Below, one piece after another: positions 3,569 through 28,865 of a stretch of 64,000 nt of DNA. Within the stretch, counting starts at the first letter, position 1; each line of letters begins with the position of its first letter. Source of the stretch: Candidatus Saccharimonadota bacterium (GTDB taxonomy: Bacteria > Patescibacteriota > Saccharimonadia > Saccharimonadales > JACDBH01). A program made the position numbers and the translations under genes. A model generated the notes under the pieces. That model did no database searches, was not told where the DNA came from, and was given only the letters and a program-made list of their open reading frames with translations. The stretch is taken from the NCBI GenBank assembly GCA_013694995.1, contig JACDBH010000002.1, positions 17,425 through 81,424 on the forward strand. The letters run 5' to 3'.

Positions 3569-4714
3569 ATGGCAATTTTCTATTTTGTTTTGGGGCTGCT
3601 GTTATTTATTGGCTTGGTCTTAGTCCACGAGTGGGGCCATTTTATTATGGCCCGACGTAATGGCGTTGACGTTGAGGAATTTGGTCTCGGTTTCCCGCCG
3701 CGCGCCAAAATTTTAGCTAAGAAAAATGGTACTATCTACAGTCTTAACTGGCTACCGCTTGGCGGCTTCGTAAAGCTAAAGGGCGAGCATGATATTGATA
3801 CTGAAAAGGGAACTTTTGGTGCCGCTGGCACCAAGGCAAAAATCAAGATTATGCTGGCGGGAGTAGTCATGAATTTGCTTACTGCTTGGTTAATATTCAC
3901 AGTCGTTGCGCTTATTGGTATGCCTAAAATTATCAAAAACCAATTTAGCGTAGGGTCTGATACAAAAATAACCCAAAGTCCCCTAAATGAAGGAGTTATA
4001 AAAATAGGTGCAGTTGTTGAGGGCTCGCCGGCAGAGCGCGCCGGTATTTTAGTAGAAGACCAACTTGTTTCCATTAACAAAGTGAGTATCAACGAGCCAG
4101 AAAGTGTCAGCGAACAAACCGAAGCCAATAAAGGTAAAACGGTCTTAGTTGAATTTAGACGCGGCGAAGAGACAATATCTAAAGATATAACGCTTAATGA
4201 AACATCGCCATACTTAGGTATTGGCCCTTATTCTGCTCAAACAGGTTTTGAGGTTAGGCGGTCTACCTGGTCGGCACCGATTGTCGCAGTTGGGGTGTCT
4301 AAGGATTTCACGCTTGCAACTCTCAATGGCCTAGGCAAGGCCCTCAAGGGCCTAGGCTCTGCAATTGCTGGTTTAATCACTGGCAACGATACTGCGCGCA
4401 AGGAGGGGCAGGCCGAAGCAAGTGACCAAGTATCAGGACCGGTTGGCATTTTTGCCGTTCTTTATGAAATTTCACGGCAAGGCATTGGCTTGGTGCTATT
4501 TATTATCGGTTTGATATCCTTGACACTGGCTATTATGAACGTCTTACCAATACCGGCACTTGATGGTGGACGGTTATTTGTAACACTTCTTTATAGGGCA
4601 GTCCGACGTCCGCTCAAACCGAGTACAGAGGATAGGATACACGGCACTGGTTTCGCAGTTTTAATGTTACTTTTTGTTCTAATAACAATTGTTGATGTAA
4701 AGCGCTTTTTGTAA
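3569..4714 (+). CDS. rseP: RIP site-2 metalloprotease, M50 family (RseP-like)
   Basis: 381 aa. HEWGHF (HExxH) in the first TM helix, a central PDZ-like segment, and C-terminal NVLPIPALDGG. Confidence 0.9.
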   Translation: MAIFYFVLGLLLFIGLVLVHEWGHFIMARRNGVDVEEFGLGFPPRAKILAKKNGTIYSLNWLPLGGFVKLKGEHDIDTEKGTFGAAGTKAKIKIMLAGVVMNLLTAWLIFTVVALIGMPKIIKNQFSVGSDTKITQSPLNEGVIKIGAVVEGSPAERAGILVEDQLVSINKVSINEPESVSEQTEANKGKTVLVEFRRGEETISKDITLNETSPYLGIGPYSAQTGFEVRRSTWSAPIVAVGVSKDFTLATLNGLGKALKGLGSAIAGLITGNDTARKEGQAEASDQVSGPVGIFAVLYEISRQGIGLVLFIIGLISLTLAIMNVLPIPALDGGRLFVTLLYRAVRRPLKPSTEDRIHGTGFAVLMLLFVLITIVDVKRFL

Positions 4715-6782: not shown

Positions 6783-6811
6783 GTTGATATACTTGAAGTA
6801 CTTCAAGCGAA

Positions 6812-6845
6812 GCTGGCTAACAGATTATGCCAGCTATTTCTTTCA
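6812..6845 (+). terminator. Intrinsic terminator after proS
   Basis: GCTGGC (6812-6817) / GCCAGC (6829-6834) stem, 11-nt loop, then TATTTCTTTC. Confidence 0.6.
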
Positions 6846-6860
6846 GAAAGGAACAAACAA

Positions 6861-7322
6861 ATGAAGAAACAATTTTATTTGACCCCAGAGGGTCTTGCTG
6901 AATTAAAGACAGAGCACGAGCAATTGGTCTCTAAGCGCGCAGAAATAGCTGAAGAAATAGCCTCTGCTCGCTCGCAAGGTGACCTGGCGGAGAATGCTGA
7001 ATATCACGCCGCAAAAGAAGAACAAGGTCGGAATGAAATCCGAATCGAAGAAATTGAACATATATTACATAACGCCGAGCTTATCACTGCACCGAAAAAT
7101 GATAATAAAATTCGCCTTGGCTCTACGGTCAAACTTACAGGTGAGGGTGGTAAGGCCAAGCAGTTTCAGGTAGTTGGCACTGTTGAAGCCGATCCATTAA
7201 ACGGCAAAATCAGCGACGAATCTCCGATTGGCAAAGCACTGATTGGTAAAAAAGAAGGTGAAGCAGTCGAAATCAAAACTCCTACTGAAACAACTTCTTA
7301 CGTTATCGCACACATCTCTTAG
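6861..7322 (+). CDS. greA: Transcription elongation factor GreA
   Basis: 153 aa. GDLAENAEYHAAKEEQ coiled-coil tip motif. AAAGGAA SD upstream. Confidence 0.94.
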   Translation: MKKQFYLTPEGLAELKTEHEQLVSKRAEIAEEIASARSQGDLAENAEYHAAKEEQGRNEIRIEEIEHILHNAELITAPKNDNKIRLGSTVKLTGEGGKAKQFQVVGTVEADPLNGKISDESPIGKALIGKKEGEAVEIKTPTETTSYVIAHIS

Positions 7323-7405
7323 ATTTTATTTTGGCGCATTGCTTTAATAGTCAACTGTGCCGTCCTGCATTACCGAAATAAAGTGAGAGTAAAGTGCTTA
7401 TAAAC

Positions 7406-7446
7406 CCCTAGACCCTTGACCTTAAACCCTGTACCCTATAAATCAA
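7406..7446 (+). promoter_or_regulatory. Conserved promoter element in front of lysS
   Basis: ACCTTAAACCCTGTACCCTATAAATC (7419-7444) matches 42649-42674 at 25 of 26 positions. TAGACC-17-TACCCT geometry. Confidence 0.5.
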
Positions 7447-8955
7447 ATGGCTACACTAAAAGATTTCCGGGATGAGAGGCTGCGTAAATTAGCTGAGCTT
7501 AAAGAACTTGGCATTAATCCTTATCCTGCTAAATCAACTAGAACGCATTATCTAGTGGAAATAACCGAGCGCTTCGAGGAGTTGCTGGGGCAACAGGTTA
7601 CTATCGTAGGACGTATTAAATCCATACGTAAGTTTGGTAAAATTGCTTTCATTGTTATCAAGGACGAATCTGGCGAGGTGCAGTTATTCTGGACCCAAAC
7701 AGAAAAGGCCGATGCAGACCACAAAAATAGCGAACTTTTACTTAACAACATTGCATTACTTGACACCGGCGATTTTGTTGAAAGTACAGGACCTGTTATT
7801 AAGACTCAGACCGGTGAAATATCCATTGAGGTAAAGAAGTTTCGATTGCTTACAAAGTCACTACGGCCAATGCCCAATGAACAGGAAGGATTCACTGACA
7901 AAGAACAGCGGATGCGCCGTCGCTATGTTGATATGAACGTCAACCGAGACGTGCATGATAGGTTTGTGCGCCGAAGCAAGTTTTGGCAGGCAACACGGGA
8001 TTTCCTGAACGAAAAAGGCTTCTTAGAAGTTAATATCCCAGTTCTAGAACATACGACAGGTGGAGCTGATGCTAATCCATTCGTAACTCATATGGACGCG
8101 CTGGATCAGGATTTTTATTTAAGAATTTCGCACGAATTGCCGCTGAAGCGACTCATCGGTGCCGGATTTGAGAAAGTTTATGACATTGGCCCCCGTTTCC
8201 GAAACGAGAACTATAGTGATGAACATTTGCCAGAACATGTAGCCATGGAATGGTACTGGGCCTATACCGATTGGGAGAAGGGCATGGAACTGATGGAAGA
8301 AATGTTCAGTGAAGTGTTACTGAAAACTTTCGGCAAGTTGAAATTTACCATTGATGGCAAAGAAGTTGATATGAGTAAAGCCTGGGAGCGTTGGGACTAT
8401 GCAGGCGTGATTCGAGATCATTTTAATTTGGACGTTTTTAACGCCTCTGTTGAGGATGTGAAGGCTAAGTTGCAAGAGCATGGCTTGGTGGTGGAAAAAA
8501 CTGAAAATGTAGCTCGAGGTATAGACAAGCTCTGGAAAAAAGTCCGTGCAAACGTCGTGGGACCAATCTGGTTAATTAATACACCGGCTTTTATTTCACC
8601 TTTATCGAAAACAAGTGATGATAACCCAAACACTACTCAGCGCGCCCAAGCGGTTATTGCCGGCAGTGAACTATGCAACTTATTTTCGGAACTTAATGAT
8701 CCTATTGACCAACTTAGCCGCTTTACGCAGCAGGAAGCCATGCGTAGTGAGGGTGATAACGAAGCAATGATGCTCGATATCGATTATGTTGAGATGCTCG
8801 AATATGGTATGCCACCGACTTGCGGCCTAGGTTATTCCGAAAGATTATTCTGGATTTTTGAAGGTGTTACTGCCCGCGAAGGCGTGCCATTCCCTCAACT
8901 CAAAATGGAAATCGACAGTGTCACTAAATCCATCTATCCTGATCTAAAACTTTAA
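7447..8955 (+). CDS. lysS: Lysyl-tRNA synthetase, class II
   Basis: 502 aa. N-terminal OB fold, then YDIGPRFRNE and GLGYSERL class II motifs. Confidence 0.95.
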   Translation: MATLKDFRDERLRKLAELKELGINPYPAKSTRTHYLVEITERFEELLGQQVTIVGRIKSIRKFGKIAFIVIKDESGEVQLFWTQTEKADADHKNSELLLNNIALLDTGDFVESTGPVIKTQTGEISIEVKKFRLLTKSLRPMPNEQEGFTDKEQRMRRRYVDMNVNRDVHDRFVRRSKFWQATRDFLNEKGFLEVNIPVLEHTTGGADANPFVTHMDALDQDFYLRISHELPLKRLIGAGFEKVYDIGPRFRNENYSDEHLPEHVAMEWYWAYTDWEKGMELMEEMFSEVLLKTFGKLKFTIDGKEVDMSKAWERWDYAGVIRDHFNLDVFNASVEDVKAKLQEHGLVVEKTENVARGIDKLWKKVRANVVGPIWLINTPAFISPLSKTSDDNPNTTQRAQAVIAGSELCNLFSELNDPIDQLSRFTQQEAMRSEGDNEAMMLDIDYVEMLEYGMPPTCGLGYSERLFWIFEGVTAREGVPFPQLKMEIDSVTKSIYPDLKL

Positions 8956-21432: not shown

Positions 21433-22503
21433 ATGGACCAATTAAAAAAACAAATTTCGGCACTACAGAAAGACATTGCCGATGCGCTAGAGCGGATTGG
21501 ATTGAAATCAATTGAAGCCGACTTAGAAAAATTACATACTCAAGTTAATAATCCCGATTTTTGGCAGGACCCAAAACGAGCGGCAAAAGTTTCTAAAGCA
21601 CAGGCTGAACTTGAACAGCGGATTCTACCCTGGGTATCGATTCGTGACGAAACGACGGAAGTAGCAGAGATGGCGATCTTAGATGACGAATCACTAAAAG
21701 CCGATCTGGATGCTCAGTTGCAAAAACTTTTAAGTCGTTTTGAAAAACAAAAAAAAGAATTACGTTACAGCGGTCCTTACGACCATAGCAACGTAATCCT
21801 AAGTATTTATGCCGGAGCAGGGGGCACAGATGCCCAGGACTGGGCTGGCATGCTGCAGAGGATGTATGTCCGTTGGGCTGAACGGCATCGCTATAGCGTC
21901 GTCACCATTACTGAATCTTTAGGAGAAGAGGCAGGTCTCAAAACAGTTACAATAGCAATCAATGGTAATATGGCTTACGGTAAATTAAAAGGCGAACATG
22001 GAGTTCATCGCCTGGTAAGACTAAGCCCATATAATGCCGATTCGTTGAGGCAGACCAGTTTTGCGAAAGTCGACGTGCTGCCAAAAATCGACCAGCCTGA
22101 AGAGGCTGAGATTGACGAAAAAGATCTGAAAATCGATGTCTACCGCAGCGGCGGTCATGGCGGCCAGAGCGTTAATACAACTGATTCGGCCGTTCGTATT
22201 ACCCACTTGCCGACGGGCATTACGGTTGCTATCCAAAACGAGCGTTCACAATTACAGAACCGCGAAACAGCAATGACGATTATCCGCTCCAAACTTGTCC
22301 AGCAGCAGCTGGAGCAACATCTCGAAAAAATTGCAGATTTAAAGGGTCCTAACGAGCAAGCGGCATGGGGAAATCAGATACGTAACTACGTGCTGCATCC
22401 ATATCAGATGGTCAAAGATTTGCGTAGCAGTGTCGAAACAAGTGATACGGACAGTGTGTTGGACGGAGAGATAGATAAATTTATTGAAGCTTACGAAGGC
22501 TAA
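21433..22503 (+). CDS. prfB: Peptide chain release factor 2 (single ORF, no frameshift)
   Basis: 356 aa. GGQSVNTTDSAVRITHLPTG, and RLVRLSPYNADSLRQTSF where RF2 normally has SPF. Confidence 0.92.
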   Translation: MDQLKKQISALQKDIADALERIGLKSIEADLEKLHTQVNNPDFWQDPKRAAKVSKAQAELEQRILPWVSIRDETTEVAEMAILDDESLKADLDAQLQKLLSRFEKQKKELRYSGPYDHSNVILSIYAGAGGTDAQDWAGMLQRMYVRWAERHRYSVVTITESLGEEAGLKTVTIAINGNMAYGKLKGEHGVHRLVRLSPYNADSLRQTSFAKVDVLPKIDQPEEAEIDEKDLKIDVYRSGGHGGQSVNTTDSAVRITHLPTGITVAIQNERSQLQNRETAMTIIRSKLVQQQLEQHLEKIADLKGPNEQAAWGNQIRNYVLHPYQMVKDLRSSVETSDTDSVLDGEIDKFIEAYEG

Positions 22504-22535: not shown

Positions 22536-23411
22536 ATGAAACGCTTTGGTGGGTTGCTGATAGTGTTTATGCTTGCACAGGTTATGTTTGTGCAGGGTAA
22601 GGCCAATTCAGCTGCTTGTGCCAATGTATCGAGCTATGGCACGGTGCGCTTGTCTTTACCTGAGCTGCCCCGTAAAGGAAAGTATGCGCTATGGGTAAGA
22701 ACGCAATCCGCGTTCCGGCAGAGCCGTATTTTGCTTGAGGTTAATAAAGAAAATTGCCTAACACTTGAATCTTTGGATGCTCCAGCTAACCAGTGGTTTT
22801 GGCTGACTCAAAAAGACTCGCAGGGAGTTATAATACCCGTAAATATTGATAATATAAGTGGCAATGTTATCACATTAATTGGCATTGACGACGCCATCAA
22901 AGTCGATAAGGTCGTTCTGACGGAACTGGACTGTATGCCACAGGATTTTGGTGATAATTGTAATAACATAGAAGCCATGCCGCCGGACACCACTAGTATT
23001 ACCCAATTAGAGCCTTACCAAGGAATAGTTAGTGGTAGCATAAAAGTCAGTAAGACGCCGGATATTAACCGAGGGCTGCTCCAGGAAGTCAGGTACAGCA
23101 CCAACGGCCGGGTTTTCCAGAGGAGTGAAGAAGGTGCCTGGCTTGATACGACACTAATCGAAAACGGCAAGCACACGGTTTTTATTGATATATTACTAAA
23201 AGATGGGCAATCAATAAGGGAAAGTATAATCTTGGACGTCAAAAATCCGGTCAATGCCATTACGCCAGTCATAAGATGGGTACGGATCAGTTCATCATCA
23301 ATAAAATTTGTGTTTATACTTATTGCTACTATCGTAGCTATTGTAGGAATGTTGTATTTATTACGAAGTAGCTATAAAAAGCGCCGGGAGCTGGAATTCC
23401 GAGGATTCTAG
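22536..23411 (+). CDS. Hypothetical exported protein with C-terminal TM anchor
   Basis: 291 aa. N-terminal signal-like helix, beta-rich ectodomain, C-terminal hydrophobic helix followed by KKRR. Confidence 0.6.
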   Translation: MKRFGGLLIVFMLAQVMFVQGKANSAACANVSSYGTVRLSLPELPRKGKYALWVRTQSAFRQSRILLEVNKENCLTLESLDAPANQWFWLTQKDSQGVIIPVNIDNISGNVITLIGIDDAIKVDKVVLTELDCMPQDFGDNCNNIEAMPPDTTSITQLEPYQGIVSGSIKVSKTPDINRGLLQEVRYSTNGRVFQRSEEGAWLDTTLIENGKHTVFIDILLKDGQSIRESIILDVKNPVNAITPVIRWVRISSSSIKFVFILIATIVAIVGMLYLLRSSYKKRRELEFRGF

Positions 23412-23488
23412 CTATTTAATAAAAAGCAGCATTTTGGCAAAAAAGTTGTCAGGCTATACAAGAATAAGCGATTTGGTATAATGGTCTG

Positions 23489-24172
23489 GTGATATTGCTT
23501 GATCGTGTGAGTAAAGCCTACAGCAAGAAAGGTGGGACCGCTTTAGAGCGGATTAGTCTGCATATAGAACCAAAAGAATTTGTTATTATAGTCGGCGCTT
23601 CTGGGGCAGGAAAATCAACGCTACTTAAGTTACTAACCCGTGAGGAAAAACCGACATCTGGCAAAATTATCGTCGGCGGGATTGACTATGAACGTTTGCA
23701 TGACCGCGATGTACCGCGCTTGCGCCGCCGCATCGGAGTTGTTTTCCAAGATTTCAAGCTATTGCCAAATAAAACCGTGTATGAAAATGTCGCTTTTGCA
23801 CTGGAAATAATAGGCGTTAGCACTAAAGAAATACGTAACACGGTGCCTCGGGTACTGGATATAGTCGGGCTTAAGGATAAAGAAAAAAGCATGCCGCTGG
23901 AACTATCCGGCGGTGAACGGCAGCGTGTTGCCATAGCCCGGGCAATAGTGCGGCAGCCTAAAATCCTTATTGCCGATGAGCCGACCGGTAACCTGGACCC
24001 TAAGCACGCCTGGGATGTCATTAAAGTACTAGAAAAAATTAACCGTTACGGAACTACCGTCCTACTTACTACCCATAACCAAGACATCGTCAACAAGTTG
24101 AAACGCCGGGTAGTGACTATAACCGACGGCAAGATACAAAGTGACGAAGCCCGCGGAAGCTACAATCTGTGA
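23489..24172 (+). CDS. ftsE: Cell division ATP-binding protein FtsE
   Basis: 227 aa, GTG start. GASGAGKST, LSGGERQR and ILIADEPTGNLD motifs. Overlaps ftsX by 4 nt. Confidence 0.93.
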   Translation: MILLDRVSKAYSKKGGTALERISLHIEPKEFVIIVGASGAGKSTLLKLLTREEKPTSGKIIVGGIDYERLHDRDVPRLRRRIGVVFQDFKLLPNKTVYENVAFALEIIGVSTKEIRNTVPRVLDIVGLKDKEKSMPLELSGGERQRVAIARAIVRQPKILIADEPTGNLDPKHAWDVIKVLEKINRYGTTVLLTTHNQDIVNKLKRRVVTITDGKIQSDEARGSYNL

Positions 24173-25116
24173 AGAATCGCCGCCTTATAATGTTAGGCCG
24201 TGTATTTATAAACGGCGGTATAAATTTTGTACGTAACGCCTGGCTGAGTATTGCCGCCATGGCTATCATGGTCGTGACACTTAGTATTGTCTTGTTTTCG
24301 TTTATCGCAAATGCAACTTTTTCCCACACAATCCAAGAAATTCGCGATCGCATTGATGTATCAGTATTTTTACTGGACAGCGTAACTACACAGCAGCGGG
24401 ATCAGCTCATAGGACAGCTTGAAGATATTGATAACGTTCGTGCGGTAGAGTATATTTCAAAGGATCAGGCGCTGGCCGATTATATTGAACTGAATAAAGA
24501 CAATGTCGATTTACAGCTTGCAATTTCCCAGACCGAGAACCCCCTACCAGCGAGCCTTCGCCTTAAGCTTCACAATCCGGACATCATAGACCAATTAAAA
24601 TCATTCCTTGATACGCCTGAAATCCAGACTCTCCAGTCAGACGAGACTTCCTATTCCGGGGACCGCAAAGAGGCGATAGATAAGATTGCTAAAGCAACAA
24701 CTTTTATCCGTCAGGCAGGTATTATCGGGGTCCTAATATTCGCATGTATCTCAGTTTTAATTATTTTTAACACTATTCAAATGGCTATTTTTAACCGCCG
24801 CGACGAACTGAGTATTATGCGTTTGCTTGGGGCGAGCCGTTGGTATATCCGCGGACCGTTTTTAGTTGAGAGCCTACTGATTGGCATTTCTGCCGCATTA
24901 ATTTCGGTGGGGCTTTGTAATATTATATTTTCCATCGCCTCAGGCACGCTTGACGCCAGCAGCCTGGGATTATTAGACATAAACTATGCCAGCCGCTATT
25001 TCGAAGAACGTTACTGGATGATTTTGGCTATTCAGCTAGGTATAGGTATAGTTATTGGCGTTACATCATCATTTGTAGCTACCCAGCGATATTTAAGATT
25101 GCGCGATACTAAGTAA
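24169..25116 (+). CDS. ftsX: Cell division permease-like protein FtsX
   Basis: 315 aa. TM1, a large extracytoplasmic loop, then 3 C-terminal TM helices. Coupled to ftsE. Confidence 0.9.
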   Translation: MKNRRLIMLGRVFINGGINFVRNAWLSIAAMAIMVVTLSIVLFSFIANATFSHTIQEIRDRIDVSVFLLDSVTTQQRDQLIGQLEDIDNVRAVEYISKDQALADYIELNKDNVDLQLAISQTENPLPASLRLKLHNPDIIDQLKSFLDTPEIQTLQSDETSYSGDRKEAIDKIAKATTFIRQAGIIGVLIFACISVLIIFNTIQMAIFNRRDELSIMRLLGASRWYIRGPFLVESLLIGISAALISVGLCNIIFSIASGTLDASSLGLLDINYASRYFEERYWMILAIQLGIGIVIGVTSSFVATQRYLRLRDTK

Positions 25117-25131
25117 TTAATTTAAGCTGTG

Positions 25132-25162
25132 ACCCGCCTTATTTTAAGCGGGTTGCTTTTGG
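25132..25162 (+). terminator. Hairpin + T-run between ftsX and the first CHAP gene
   Basis: ACCCGC (25132-25137) / GCGGGT (25148-25153), 10-nt loop, then TGCTTTTGG, which runs into the GGAGGA SD. Confidence 0.5.
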
Positions 25163-25171
25163 AGGATATGC

Positions 25172-26335
25172 ATGTCATACGTTTTAACTCCAAAAGAAAA
25201 ATTATTTAAAAAAAATACCTACAAATTTAGGACGAGGGTGCTGCACGCCGGGCTTTTAGCAGTAACTATCTTTTACAGCATGATTACTTTGGCTAGCTCG
25301 CAAGCAGCCAATGGCCAAAGTCTACAGCAGCAAATTAATAATCTAAACGCCCAGAACCAGCAGTCGCAGTCTAATGCCAGCGCACTGGATATGGAAGCTG
25401 CTAACTTCCAAGATACGATTAATGCCCTGCAGGCGCAAATAGATGCCCAACAGGAGCGGATAAATGAAATCGGGCAAAAGCGGAATGAGCTCCAGGCGCA
25501 AATTACCGAGGCTGAGGCTGAAATTGCTAGGCAGCAGGTGATTTTGGGCAAAAACATCCGAGCCATGTACCTTGAAGGTGATATGTCGACGATTGAGATG
25601 ATTGCAACCAGCAAAAGCCTTAGCCATTACCTTGACAAAGAACAGTACCGCAGCGTGGTGCGCGATACGATTAAAGCTACACTCGATACTATTAAGGAAC
25701 TAAAGGTCTCACTTACTGCTCAGAAAGTGGAGCAGGAGCGACTGCTCAGCGAACAACAAGCCGCACGAGACCAGGTTGCGGCCCAACGTAATGAGCACTC
25801 CAGGCTCTTAGGTCTCAACAAGTCTGAACAGGCGTCGATCGATGCAAGAATCCAAAGTAACAGTTCACGAATTGCAGCCTTAAGAAAACAACAAGCGGCC
25901 GAAAACGCCCGGTTGCAACGCCGTAACGGTGGTACTGTACGCAACGTACCAGATACTACAGGTTACCCGTGGGCGAATGTAGAACCTTTTCCTAATGCTT
26001 TTCCTGATCCTTGGGGCATGTACAAACGCCAATGCGTCAGTTACACCGCCTGGAAAGTCTACAAAAATGGTAAAGACATGCCTTACTGGGGCGGACGTGG
26101 TAATGCCAAGAACTGGGCTAATAATGCCCGAGCCGACGGTATCCCAGTTTTTACTTCGCCACAAAAAGGCGATATTGCCGTCAGTACTCGCGGCACTTAT
26201 GGACACGTGATGTATGTCGAAGAAGTACTTTCCGGCGGACGTATACGTATCAGTCAGTACAACGCCGGTTGGGATGGCCGTTACTCTGAAGCTACAATTT
26301 CATCTGCCGGTTATGAGTACGTACGGTTCCGATAA
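25172..26335 (+). CDS. PcsB-like peptidoglycan hydrolase (signal/TM + coiled coil + CHAP), copy 1
   Basis: 387 aa. About 230 aa Q/A/E-rich coiled coil. C-terminal CHAP domain (QCVSYTAWKV, GHVMYVEEV). GGAGGA SD upstream. Confidence 0.85.
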   Translation: MSYVLTPKEKLFKKNTYKFRTRVLHAGLLAVTIFYSMITLASSQAANGQSLQQQINNLNAQNQQSQSNASALDMEAANFQDTINALQAQIDAQQERINEIGQKRNELQAQITEAEAEIARQQVILGKNIRAMYLEGDMSTIEMIATSKSLSHYLDKEQYRSVVRDTIKATLDTIKELKVSLTAQKVEQERLLSEQQAARDQVAAQRNEHSRLLGLNKSEQASIDARIQSNSSRIAALRKQQAAENARLQRRNGGTVRNVPDTTGYPWANVEPFPNAFPDPWGMYKRQCVSYTAWKVYKNGKDMPYWGGRGNAKNWANNARADGIPVFTSPQKGDIAVSTRGTYGHVMYVEEVLSGGRIRISQYNAGWDGRYSEATISSAGYEYVRFR

Positions 26336-26409
26336 ATCACTACTTTAGCGGATTGTATTTAGAGTCGTTTCATGCTACAATGCATTCGTTATAGTTAAAA
26401 ACAAAAACA

Positions 26410-27576
26410 ATGAAAATTAAGCTAACATCAAGTAACATCAAGATTACCCGTCTCGGATTCCTATTGATTGCGGCAGTGATGAGTGTAGGTAGTTACCGGA
26501 TAGTCCAGGCCCAGAGTCTTCAGGAACAGATTAACGATTTAACTGCCGAAAATAATCAGACAAAACAACAGGTCAATGCGCTTGCAGCTGAAGCCGCCAG
26601 CTACCAGGATGCTATTAACAACTTGCAGGCGCAAATCAATGAATATCAGCGCCAGATTAATGCTCGTCAGGCGGAAAGCGAGAGTTTGAAGGCTCAGATT
26701 GTAGAAAAAGAAGCCGAGCTGCTGCGTCAGAAAGATCTTTTAGGACAAAGCATCAAGGCAATGTATTTAGAGGGCGATATAACCACGATTGAAATGCTTG
26801 CAACCAGCAAGAATCTAAGTGACTACTTTGACCGCCAGCAATATAGAGAAGTGGTAAAAAGTAAAATCAAGACCACGCTTGATAAAGTTACGGCTCTGAA
26901 GGCCGAACTCCAGACAAAGAAAGCAGAAGTCGAAAAGATCATCGTCCAACAGAAGGAGTTGCGAGCCCAAGCCGATGCCCAAAAGGCAGAGCAAAAGCGG
27001 CTTTTAAGTTTCAATAAGTCACAACAAGCAGATTTTAATAACCAGGTGAAGGAAAACCAAGCCAGAATCAATGAGCTGAAACGTCAGCAGGCGATAGAAA
27101 ATGCTCGTTTGTTTGGTGGTACGGGCGGTACTCTGGGTGGCGGTGGCTATCCTTGGGGCAGTGCCAGGTGTATCCACACCGGACAGATTGAAGGTTGGTG
27201 CTATAACTACGATTGGTCAGTTGGTGGTTCGATTTATAATTGGCAGACAGGTGGCTATGGCTACCGTAACTGTACTGACTGGGTGGCCTTCCGAGTCCGA
27301 ATTGCCGGTGGCTACGTCCCATCAGGCCTAGGCAATGCTAGGCAGTGGGATGACCGTGCCCCAAATTACGGTTATACAGTCAGCGGCACACCAAAAGAGG
27401 GTGCTGCGGCCGTTAGCAACAGCGGTTATTACGGCCATGTCATGTATGTTGAAGCAGTAAATGAAGACGGCACTATTATCGTTAGCGATTATAACCGAGC
27501 AGGGACCGGTAAGTACGACATGAACGAATTGTCTGCAGGCACTGCCGGTAATCTTAGATACGTTTATTTCCGCTAG
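26410..27576 (+). CDS. PcsB-like peptidoglycan hydrolase (coiled coil + CHAP), copy 2
   Basis: 388 aa, colinear paralogue of the previous gene. CHAP motifs NCTDWVAFRV and GHVMYVEAV. Confidence 0.85.
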   Translation: MKIKLTSSNIKITRLGFLLIAAVMSVGSYRIVQAQSLQEQINDLTAENNQTKQQVNALAAEAASYQDAINNLQAQINEYQRQINARQAESESLKAQIVEKEAELLRQKDLLGQSIKAMYLEGDITTIEMLATSKNLSDYFDRQQYREVVKSKIKTTLDKVTALKAELQTKKAEVEKIIVQQKELRAQADAQKAEQKRLLSFNKSQQADFNNQVKENQARINELKRQQAIENARLFGGTGGTLGGGGYPWGSARCIHTGQIEGWCYNYDWSVGGSIYNWQTGGYGYRNCTDWVAFRVRIAGGYVPSGLGNARQWDDRAPNYGYTVSGTPKEGAAAVSNSGYYGHVMYVEAVNEDGTIIVSDYNRAGTGKYDMNELSAGTAGNLRYVYFR

Positions 27577-27638
27577 AAGTTCGCATTCTTACGAAGTACT
27601 TTATGGTACAATACCTCTAAACATAAGAGGGAAAACGC

Positions 27639-28865
27639 GTGCAGGATGAGGCAGACAAACAGCCGGCTATATTAGAAAAACGTCGTAAAAAAGGCCGGTT
27701 CCTACCGCGCTTAAGTTATCTGGTACTAGCCCTGGCTATTTTTACAGCCGGCTGGCTAGCCGGCTGTGGACGCTTGCAAGTCCGGCAATACGGGGCAGTT
27801 AGTAGCAATAGTGGCTTACCGGATAAGCTTGATCTTTCTAGCGTCGATAGCATCTATCAATCATTAAAAAATAATTTTGATGGCACGCTCGACGAAGCAG
27901 CTTTGCTGGACGGCATTAAAAGTGGCCTGGCAAAAGCTACAGGTGACCCATACACTGAGTACTTTAACGCTGAAGGTGCTGAAGAGTTTACTAACGAAAT
28001 TGACGGAGTATTTGAAGGCATCGGAGCTCAACTAGGCAAGGATGCCGACAATAATATTATTATCATTTCGCCGCTTTCTGGCTATCCGGCCGAACGAGCT
28101 GGGCTTAAACCAAAAGATATTATTGCCCAGATAGACGGTGAAACCGCATATGACTTGACAATCGGTGAGGCTGTCGACAAGATCCGAGGCGAAAAGGGCA
28201 CTACGGTAATACTTACCATTGTACGCGATGGCAAACCCATAGAGATTCCGGTTGTACGCGAACAAATAGACGTACCGAGCGTAAAATCTGAAATCAAAGA
28301 CGGCATCGGTGTCATAGAAATTACCCGATTTGGTGACGATACGGTTGAGTTGGCCCGTAAGGCCGCACAAGATTTCAAAGCCGCAAATGTAAAAGGTATC
28401 GTGCTTGATTTGAGGGGCAACCCTGGCGGCTACTTGGAGGGTTCGGTTGATGTTGCCAGTCTATGGCTTGATAAGGGCACGACAATTCTAACTGAAAGGC
28501 GCGAGAATGTGGTAATAAATACGATTTCAGCTAAAGGCAACCCGCTATTAAAAGGTATACCGACTATAGTGCTAATCGATGAAGGCAGCGCCAGTGCCTC
28601 TGAAATCCTAGCTGGAGCTCTTAAGGACAATAACGCAGCAACACTTATCGGTCAGAAATCTTTCGGTAAAGGCTCGGTCCAACAACCAGTTAATTTGCGT
28701 GACGGGGGACTACTTAAAGTAACGATTGCAAGATGGTTTACGCCTGCAGGCAAAAACATAGATAAAGAAGGTATAGAGCCTGATACCGCAATCGAGCTGA
28801 AGCCGGAAGATGTGACCGCCGGGCGAGATCCGCAACTCGACGCCGCTATAGCTAAATTACGATAA
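27639..28865 (+). CDS. ctpA: S41 C-terminal processing peptidase
   Basis: 408 aa, GTG start after an AAGAGGG SD. PDZ domain, then RGNPGG, GSASASE and FGKGSVQ motifs. Confidence 0.9.
   Translation: MQDEADKQPAILEKRRKKGRFLPRLSYLVLALAIFTAGWLAGCGRLQVRQYGAVSSNSGLPDKLDLSSVDSIYQSLKNNFDGTLDEAALLDGIKSGLAKATGDPYTEYFNAEGAEEFTNEIDGVFEGIGAQLGKDADNNIIIISPLSGYPAERAGLKPKDIIAQIDGETAYDLTIGEAVDKIRGEKGTTVILTIVRDGKPIEIPVVREQIDVPSVKSEIKDGIGVIEITRFGDDTVELARKAAQDFKAANVKGIVLDLRGNPGGYLEGSVDVASLWLDKGTTILTERRENVVINTISAKGNPLLKGIPTIVLIDEGSASASEILAGALKDNNAATLIGQKSFGKGSVQQPVNLRDGGLLKVTIARWFTPAGKNIDKEGIEPDTAIELKPEDVTAGRDPQLDAAIAKLR

Follow-up and report, generated by a model that had tools for sequence, protein, structure and literature searches.

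Why should a member of the Saccharibacteria keep two similar hydrolase genes side by side, directly downstream of ftsEX? The question is raised by a 64,000-nucleotide (nt) stretch of a Candidatus Saccharimonadota genome (contig JACDBH010000002.1, positions 17,425 to 81,424; the whole stretch is called the window below, and coordinates are given within it). The list of open reading frames (ORFs) places five genes on the same (+) strand, in the order ftsE, ftsX, a first and a second coiled-coil/CHAP hydrolase gene (copy 1 and copy 2), and an S41 protease gene. Saccharibacteria and other Patescibacteria have tiny genomes, and their division is poorly understood; the locus suggests that they follow the strategy of Gram-positive bacteria, with a coiled-coil hydrolase under the direct control of FtsEX. 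We consider it likely that the locus encodes a Saccharibacteria form of the Gram-positive-type FtsEX/hydrolase cell-separation machine, equipped with two alternative effectors.

The ftsEX genes and the two adjacent hydrolase genes

The ftsE gene (23489–24172; 227 amino acids, aa) encodes the ABC ATPase of FtsEX, and ftsX (24169–25116; 315 aa), which overlaps it by 4 nt, encodes the membrane subunit with its extracellular domain (ECD). FtsE passed the TIGR02673 equivalog at 285.1 bits (cut-off 264.85) and matched Pfam ABC_tran at 132.7 bits. FtsX matched Pfam FtsX_ECD (65.6 bits, residues 63–147) and the FtsX permease family (53.9 bits), both above threshold. It stayed under every NCBIfam FtsX cut-off (FtsX_Gpos, 199 bits against 225; FtsX_Gneg, 164; FtsX_actino, 140), as expected for a divergent phylum. 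FtsX chains in the PDB matched at E = 5e-18 to 3e-9, and the nearest solved relative was Mycobacterium tuberculosis FtsX from the FtsEX/RipC complex (8idb; E = 4.9e-18, residues 19–288 colinear with 13–280).

Copy 1 (25172–26335; 387 aa) and copy 2 (26410–27576; 388 aa) share 40% identity across 380 aligned residues, a similarity far above chance (E = 1e-86), and the motif strings that an earlier model-made reading of this DNA (hereafter the sequence-only reading) had picked out in both are present in the alignment. That reading had named a failure of the C-terminal domains to reach CHAP thresholds as a refutation; these domains score 63.6 bits (copy 1, residues 280–364) and 64.6 bits (copy 2, residues 279–362) with Pfam CHAP (PF05257), above the gathering threshold of 26 bits. 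Copy 1 consists of an N-terminal signal/anchor segment, a helical hairpin (8–251), a GYPW linker and the CHAP domain (280–387), with Cys288, His345, Gln362, and Asn364 as its catalytic set. Copy 2 consists of a signal/anchor segment, a helical hairpin (13–234), a Gly-rich GYPW linker, an insertion containing Cys254 and Cys264, and the CHAP domain (279–388), with Cys288, His343, Asp360, and Asn362 as its catalytic set. Read by eye, both N-termini show a basic N-region and a hydrophobic stretch followed by SQA or VQA, as in signal peptides. Copy 1 is 100% identical to an NCBI entry, ‘CHAP domain-containing protein [Candidatus Saccharibacteria bacterium]’.

For the AlphaFold2 models, 62 sequences were aligned for copy 1 and 64 for copy 2. 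The copy 1 model (mean predicted local distance difference test score, pLDDT, 78) has two long helices (8–136 and 150–251), a short one at the turn between them, and then a CHAP fold. The copy 2 model (mean pLDDT 69) has helices 13–122 and 136–234 and, after them, a CHAP fold too; its linker and insertion are modelled with low confidence. Together with the Pfam matches, the models bear out the architecture that had been read from both genes, namely a signal or transmembrane segment, a coiled coil, and a C-terminal CHAP domain.

In Foldseek searches against the PDB, the best full-length match of both models was PcsB (4CGK; E = 5e-9 for copy 1 and 4.5e-9 for copy 2, over 370–394 columns). Further colinear matches were EnvC (6TPI and 8TZL; E from 2.4e-5, for copy 2 against 8tzl, to 5.6e-4) and RipC (8IDC chain E), both of which were solved with FtsX or FtsEX. 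The CHAP domains superposed best on staphylococcal CHAPs, with a root-mean-square deviation of 1.5 Å and 37% identity for copy 2 against 5T1Q. The family profile was colinear with PcsB (24–377 against 6–366, E = 4e-11) and matched the EnvC coiled coil over 34–237 (E = 1.2e-7). Because the profile matches agree with the structural ones, we judge the coiled coils to be homologous to those of PcsB and EnvC, beyond mere likeness of shape. Additionally, two homologues, P0027 and P0236, reached 24.7 and 25.5 bits with Pfam CC_PcsB (PF24568) over the tip of the hairpin, just below the threshold of 27. The RipC model NF038345 reached 24.3 bits, over the coiled coil only, against a cut-off of 425; RipC has an NlpC/P60 catalytic domain, and the catalytic domain here is CHAP. 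Likewise, the EnvC model NF008644 gave 16.2 bits over the coiled coil only, and no M23 match, such as the LytM/M23 domain of EnvC would give, was found in the window proteins. The coordinates, the domain thresholds, and PcsB as the best full-length structural match uphold the earlier description of the locus as ftsEX followed by two PcsB-like coiled-coil/CHAP paralogues and an S41 protease.

Distribution and divergence of the two hydrolase types

We compared the window with related loci drawn from the best 80 of 583 matches ranked against copy 2, for which a genome scan returned 78 loci (labelled L001 onwards where they need to be told apart). Nearly all of these come from metagenome-assembled genomes of Saccharibacteria/Saccharimonadales. 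Mapping by tblastn gave the order M16 peptidase–prfB–ftsE–ftsX–hydrolase(s)–ctp–pyrG, in which ctp is the S41 protease gene, in 58 of the 58 marker-complete related loci. A 7-kilobase contig labelled Candidatus Limnocylindrales (Chloroflexota) (L038, DATHYB010000071.1) carries the typical Saccharibacteria order ftsE–ftsX–B–ctp–pyrG, where B is a type B hydrolase gene as defined below, at 50–80% identity to the window proteins, and is probably mis-binned.

Motif typing split the hydrolases cleanly into two types. Type A, to which copy 1 belongs, reads R[QE]CVS[YW] at the catalytic Cys and SQ[YF]N at the relay and has no insertion; type B, to which copy 2 belongs, reads RNCT[DS]W and SDYN and has an insertion of ~18 residues with two Cys. 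The contexts of the catalytic Cys in the window, QCVSYTAW in copy 1 and NCTDWVAF in copy 2, are as the sequence-only reading had given them. A neighbour-joining tree of 33 type A and 55 type B sequences showed two deep clades, each of which roughly follows the species tree. Among the 59 complete loci, the window included, the slot between ftsX and ctp held B only in 37, A only in 12, A followed by B in 6, two A genes in 3, and a degenerate copy followed by B in 1. The tandem loci are scattered over the species-tree proxy, and several of the closest relatives of the window hold B alone in the slot (L001–L004, L006–L008, and L017). Where both types are present, A precedes B in eight of eight loci (the six complete ones and the incomplete L009 and L040).

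In a neighbour-joining bootstrap tree of the CHAP cores with five outgroup CHAPs, A and B grouped together at 99%, and A and B were each monophyletic, at 100% and 94%; the type B cores lay closer to the outgroups than the type A cores. A domain swap as the source of the CHAP difference was rejected on the grouping of the A and B cores against the outgroups. We also rejected a recent local tandem duplication, since A and B are deep clades that each span many lineages. The pattern is most simply read as a whole-gene duplication that took place long ago, in the Saccharibacteria or before them, after which one copy was lost or relocated repeatedly and A/A duplications arose secondarily in a few cases. 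The sequence-only reading, which took the module to be duplicated here, had thus recognised the two paralogues and understated their age: A and B are ancient clades retained differentially across Saccharibacteria.

Some loci depart from these patterns. L050, L061, and L074 carry two type A genes in tandem between ftsX and ctp and no B; their downstream copies lie on long or deep branches of the A clade, and this position suggests that they arose by secondary duplication or took the place of B. In L032, an extra coiled-coil copy (6796–7641) upstream of the type B gene lacks both the Cys-context and the His motifs of CHAP, and it is possibly decaying or an EnvC-like non-catalytic derivative. Two orphan type A genes stand near other envelope functions: one lies directly 3′ of a gene for a DsbA-like thioredoxin, near an S11 D-Ala-D-Ala carboxypeptidase gene (L073, 7170–9077), and another is near a VKOR-family gene (L075, 5160–9074). 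The DsbA-like and VKOR neighbours point to extracytoplasmic disulfide formation, although type A has one Cys. Neither DsbA, VKOR, nor a further paralogue was found within the window.

Conservation was computed over 62 type A and 64 type B homologues, 126 in all. Within the coiled coil, it is highest at the hairpin tip (residues 111–160 of copy 1, 25502–25651, ...LGKNIRAMYLEGDMSTIEMIATSKSLSHYLDKEQYR...), which spans the helix break at 136–150 in the copy 1 model. A and B have the same majority residue in 74% of its columns, against 32–46% in the helices and 2–21% in the N-terminus and linker. The tip consensus reads AMYLEGD-x-(S/T)T-x-EM-x-(A/L)TS(K/N)-x-LS-x(4)-D-x(2)-QYR. Since the Lip of RipC and the tip of EnvC dock on FtsX (PMC11627006), the hairpin tip is a candidate docking site for the FtsX ECD in both types.

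The CHAP domain follows a different pattern. It is the most conserved part within each type (0.84 in A and 0.82 in B), and 44% of its columns have a common majority residue between the types. At 13 CHAP positions, the types differ in residues that are fixed in at least 90% of the sequences of each clade; six of these positions flank the catalytic Cys (287, 289–292, and 295), and another is the relay, where A has Gln362 and B has Asp360, against Glu in PcsB and in each of the five outgroups. None of the 62 type A or 64 type B sequences departs from the catalytic Cys, the His, or the final Asn. The type B-specific insertion (residues ~250–281, 27157–27252) is not found in any type A sequence, and its Cys254 and Cys264 are invariant in 64 of 64 type B sequences. 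Mature type B proteins always have exactly three Cys, and type A proteins have exactly one in 61 of 62 cases. This three-Cys pattern with an invariant pair makes a Cys254–Cys264 disulfide in the B-specific loop likely. Among close relatives, type A diverges faster (60–65% identity) than type B (68–82%). By these residues, type A with its Gln relay reads as the derived copy, and type B, with its Asp relay and Cys-pair loop, as the conservative one. A shared tip with diverged active sites is what would be expected of two effectors that dock on the same FtsX and cut differently, and the 13 fixed type-specific differences strengthen the earlier hint of sub-functionalisation.

Expression signals and the adjoining protease

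Copy 1 starts 55 nt 3′ of ftsX, and a hairpin followed by a T-run lies between them (25129–25160, + strand). Its stem, GTGACCCGC/GCGGGTTGC (25129–25156), has 9 base pairs around a 10-nt loop, and the TTTT (25157–25160) abuts the Shine-Dalgarno sequence of copy 1, GGAGGA (25161–25166), 6 nt 5′ of the ATG. The hairpin was found by a relaxed hairpin scan and missed by the standard terminator scan because of the length of the loop. Under loose criteria, a hairpin with a T-run follows ftsX in 11 of ~70 loci, comprising 7 of 11 tandem and 4 of 59 single-gene loci, a contrast that is inflated by related lineages. We rejected a conserved intrinsic terminator after ftsX on this low count and on its absence from L050, the closest relative.

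An extended -10-like motif, TGnTAnnnT, precedes 55 of 67 single-slot hydrolase genes and 12 of 12 downstream tandem genes, against 3 of 12 first-of-tandem genes (Fisher p = 5e-5); the background rate of 0.195 is close to that of the first-of-tandem genes. In the window, the motif precedes ftsE, copy 2, ctp, and pyrG, and does not precede ftsX or copy 1. The promoter-like element of ftsE, TGGTATAAT (23474–23482, + strand), is a consensus match only (10 of 12 positions with the TG, the best in the region, at -15 from the GTG). Those of copy 2, TGCTACAAT (26373–26381, + strand), and ctp, TGGTACAAT (27604–27612, + strand), start 37 and 35 nt 5′ of their genes; the copy 2 motif is identical in L001, and the ctp motif is a consensus match only. 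Because the motif precedes copy 2 and ctp and not copy 1, the pattern suggests three transcription units, [ftsE–ftsX–copy 1], [copy 2], and [ctp]. As copy 1 has no promoter-like motif of its own, it is plausibly transcribed together with ftsEX.

Other features of the leaders and spacers were observed. The element upstream of ftsE ends only 7 nt 5′ of the GTG, so that, if this -10 is used, the ftsE transcript would be leaderless or near-leaderless, or the true start would be another one. The leader of copy 2 (26382–26409) and that of its L001 orthologue (4319–4352) are A-rich, aaaaacaaaaacaATG, with no Shine-Dalgarno sequence, whereas copy 1 has the canonical GGAGGA; the two copies may therefore differ in their mode of translation start. 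Spacers between ftsX and the hydrolase gene can be long and very stable, as in L001 (4040–4300, 266 nt, -118 kcal/mol) and L009 (1175–1515, 338 nt, -94.5 kcal/mol). Long inverted repeats make up the L001 spacer, into which a small mobile or repeat element could have been inserted. A riboswitch or other known RNA in these spacers was rejected, there being no Rfam match in nine loci or in the window.

The last gene of the locus, ctp (27639–28865, + strand; 408 aa), encodes a PDZ and S41 C-terminal processing protease and lies directly 3′ of the hydrolase gene or genes in 58 of 58 complete related loci. The protein matched Peptidase_S41 at 172.6 bits and PDZ at 36–37 bits, and it passed TIGR00225 at 307.3 bits (cut-off 218.6). 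In its translation, the N-terminal hydrophobic segment ends in a lipobox-like LAGC. The sequence-only reading had named the gene ctpA. Because the protein stays below every cut-off of the CtpA, CtpB, and CtpC exception models, this orthologue name is unjustified, and we use ctp.

Most of the hydrolases end exactly at an invariant Phe (51 of 62 type A and 59 of 64 type B sequences). A hydrophobic C-terminus is the type of ligand recognised by PDZ-guided C-terminal proteases. Ctp might accordingly trim or degrade both copies, perhaps by way of the C-terminal Phe; we put this link forward as a hypothesis only, because the same Phe also sits in the last CHAP strand. In Pseudomonas aeruginosa, the S41 protease CtpA degrades several cell-wall hydrolases (PMC8764530, PMC11021448), while CtpB of Bacillus subtilis is known for sporulation signalling (PMC13174948). 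An adjacency of ftsEX and ctpB has been recorded in B. subtilis (PMC5072692), which indicates that the linkage is old.

Upstream of ftsE, the prfB gene for release factor 2 (21433–22503, + strand) is one unbroken ORF of 356 aa and aligns as a single segment in relatives too. Many bacterial prfB genes contain a programmed +1 frameshift; the uninterrupted frame gives no sign of one here. The interval between prfB and ftsE holds a 291-aa ORF (22536–23411, + strand) with a signal-like N-terminus and a C-terminal hydrophobic anchor followed by basic residues, and it has no Pfam or NCBIfam match. The ORF is kept, at 29–41% identity, only in the subclade of the window (L001–L005, L007, L008, L013, L017, and L050), and it is missing from the same position in the other Saccharibacteria loci.

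Proposed mechanism and comparison with known systems

In the mechanism that we propose, cytoplasmic FtsE would hydrolyse ATP, and FtsX would relay the conformational change to its ECD. Each secreted protein is modelled as a long antiparallel helical hairpin holding a C-terminal CHAP cysteine peptidase or amidase. Its conserved tip probably docks on the FtsX ECD, and docking would free the hydrolase from autoinhibition, as in PcsB, RipC, and EnvC. In RipC, the Lip at the hairpin tip (residues 110–128) binds the FtsX ECD, and the coiled coil holds the catalytic domain in an autoinhibited state; a similar mode of action is assumed for EnvC and PcsB (PMC11627006). Type B is preceded by a promoter-like motif, carries an additional loop in which a disulfide is probable, and is the type that usually stands alone in the slot. 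In type A, the surroundings of the catalytic Cys are remodelled; as no promoter-like motif precedes this copy, transcription from ftsEX probably runs on into it across the weak hairpin. Because the docking tip is shared and the active-site differences are fixed, we take it as most likely that a single FtsEX transducer serves both hydrolases, which would attack different peptidoglycan bonds or substrates. The adjoining PDZ/S41 protease is a candidate for trimming or degrading both.

Several observations weigh against this proposal. The window proteins gave no match to CC_PcsB (E <= 1) and failed the PcsB equivalog NF046104 by a wide margin (49.7 bits for copy 1 and 39.2 for copy 2, against 450), so that we regard them as PcsB-like, yet not as PcsB orthologues. 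The hairpin between ftsX and copy 1 is marginal (-15.1 kcal/mol, z = -1.8, with 11 of 200 shuffles folding as well) and not conserved in L050. Hence, of the earlier suggestion that the hairpin attenuates copy 1, the hairpin itself exists and the attenuator appears weak. The putative promoters and terminator are consensus motifs alone. Furthermore, the ranking against copy 2 means that type B is over-represented in the locus sample, and the trees are neighbour-joining, distance-based ones only. In L069, L073, and L075, type A genes are found in unrelated surroundings, away from ftsEX, which implies that not every type A protein need be tied to FtsEX. Finally, many genomes hold only A or only B in the slot, and the pair may thus be largely interchangeable.

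This last point leads to the view that A and B are redundant back-ups that perform the same FtsEX-dependent cleavage, their differences reflecting neutral drift or lineage adaptation. A-only (12) and B-only (37) slots are common over the species tree, as if either type were able to act alone, A+A tandems exist (L050, L061, and L074), and the docking tip is common to both types. However, the 13 fixed differences cluster at the catalytic Cys, the relay, and the Cys-pair insertion, while each CHAP type is well conserved in itself (0.84 and 0.82), and this combination argues for two maintained specificities rather than drift. The constant A-then-B order in eight of eight A+B loci and the promoter-motif pattern, which differs by position, also speak against redundancy, which we regard as rather unlikely. 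A more elaborate version of the two-effector proposal has FtsEX switching between two docking-compatible effectors of different specificity, A being stoichiometric with FtsEX on one transcript, B separately controlled and disulfide-stabilised, and Ctp clearing both by reading the C-terminal Phe. In its boldest form, one paralogue would cut the host wall at the episymbiotic contact. This version is improbable as a whole.

A host-directed role could also be imagined apart from division, with one paralogue, most plausibly the faster-evolving type A, being a weapon or tool that is secreted to act on the wall of the host cell. The lower identity of type A among close relatives (60–65% against 68–82%), its unusual Gln in the catalytic relay, and its occurrence outside the ftsEX locus in L069, L073, and L075 would fit such a use. 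Against it, type A keeps the conserved hairpin tip of type B and is the sole hydrolase of the ftsEX slot in 12 loci; in the window, it lies 55 nt behind ftsX without a promoter-like motif of its own, and there is no sign of a correlation with host range. We hold this explanation to be very unlikely. An even poorer prospect is that one copy has no catalytic activity and acts, in the manner of EnvC, as an adaptor controlling the other copy or a different hydrolase. EnvC does provide the precedent of a coiled-coil FtsX partner with a degenerate catalytic domain (PMC11627006), type A has Gln in place of the acidic relay residue, and the extra copy in L032 is degenerate and lacks the CHAP His motif. 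Nevertheless, all 62 A and 64 B sequences keep the catalytic Cys, His, and Asn unchanged, CHAP is the most conserved part of each protein, and papain-type Cys–His enzymes function with an uncharged third residue.

The reading of the locus as a cell-separation machine with two effectors extends a known FtsEX–hydrolase system to a little-studied phylum; it is not a new mechanism, and the general picture of FtsEX function is unchanged. We found no account of a Saccharibacteria FtsEX/CHAP module in the literature searched, where the one paper containing all the search terms concerns the ftsX of the host. Relative to the sequence-only reading, the new elements are the ancient paralogy, the shared probable docking tip, the derived state of A and conservative state of B, the promoter-like motif at the downstream gene only, and the lack of conservation of the hairpin. 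The phylum appears to have kept two old effector types with a common docking tip, which offers a natural test of how far FtsEX specificity lies in the hairpin tip and how far in the catalytic domain, and the genes are candidate targets for genetics in the few cultivable strains.

Among characterised systems, FtsEX–PcsB of Streptococcus pneumoniae (4CGK, NF046104) is similar in having a secreted partner of FtsEX with a long N-terminal coiled coil, a linker, and a CHAP domain with Cys and His. The window proteins differ from PcsB in sequence (18–21% identity only), in their modelled simple two-helix hairpin as opposed to the five-helix V of PcsB, and in the relay, where Glu360 of PcsB corresponds to Asp in B or Gln in A. 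As far as is known, pcsB is a single gene away from ftsEX, unlike the two diverged paralogues here, which fill the interval from ftsX to ctp. PcsB acts as a D-iGln-Lys endopeptidase (bioRxiv 10.1101/2025.05.23.655736). Staphylococcal secreted CHAPs (2K3A, 2LRJ, and 5T1Q) are the closest CHAPs in both sequence and structure (37–40% identity) and have a Cys–His–acid–Asn relay, which is Cys–His–Glu–Asn in 2K3A, the acidic position being Asp in B and Gln in A. They have no coiled coil and no link to FtsEX, and they are outgroups to A and B in the CHAP tree.

The locus also resembles FtsEX–RipC of Mycobacterium and Corynebacterium (8IDB/8IDC) and FtsEX–CwlO of B. subtilis, in which FtsX directly activates a coiled-coil hydrolase, and the window FtsX is nearest to that of M. 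tuberculosis. RipC and CwlO have an NlpC/P60 catalytic domain, whereas the window proteins carry CHAP; no description of tandem paralogous effectors beside ftsEX in these systems was found in the literature searched. As in the ftsEX–ctpB cluster of B. subtilis, an S41/PDZ protease gene adjoins ftsEX (PMC5072692), but in Saccharibacteria the hydrolase genes sit between ftsX and ctp. The Gram-negative FtsEX–EnvC–AmiA/AmiB system (6TPI, 8HD0, and 8TZL) has a homologous coiled-coil hairpin docked on FtsX, and there, AmiA and AmiB are two hydrolytic outputs under the control of a single FtsEX. EnvC, whose LytM/M23 domain is degenerate, serves as an activator rather than an enzyme, whereas both partners in the window hold an intact CHAP catalytic set. 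Thus, the two outputs that pass through one adaptor in the EnvC system would come, in Saccharibacteria, from two alternative partners of FtsX.

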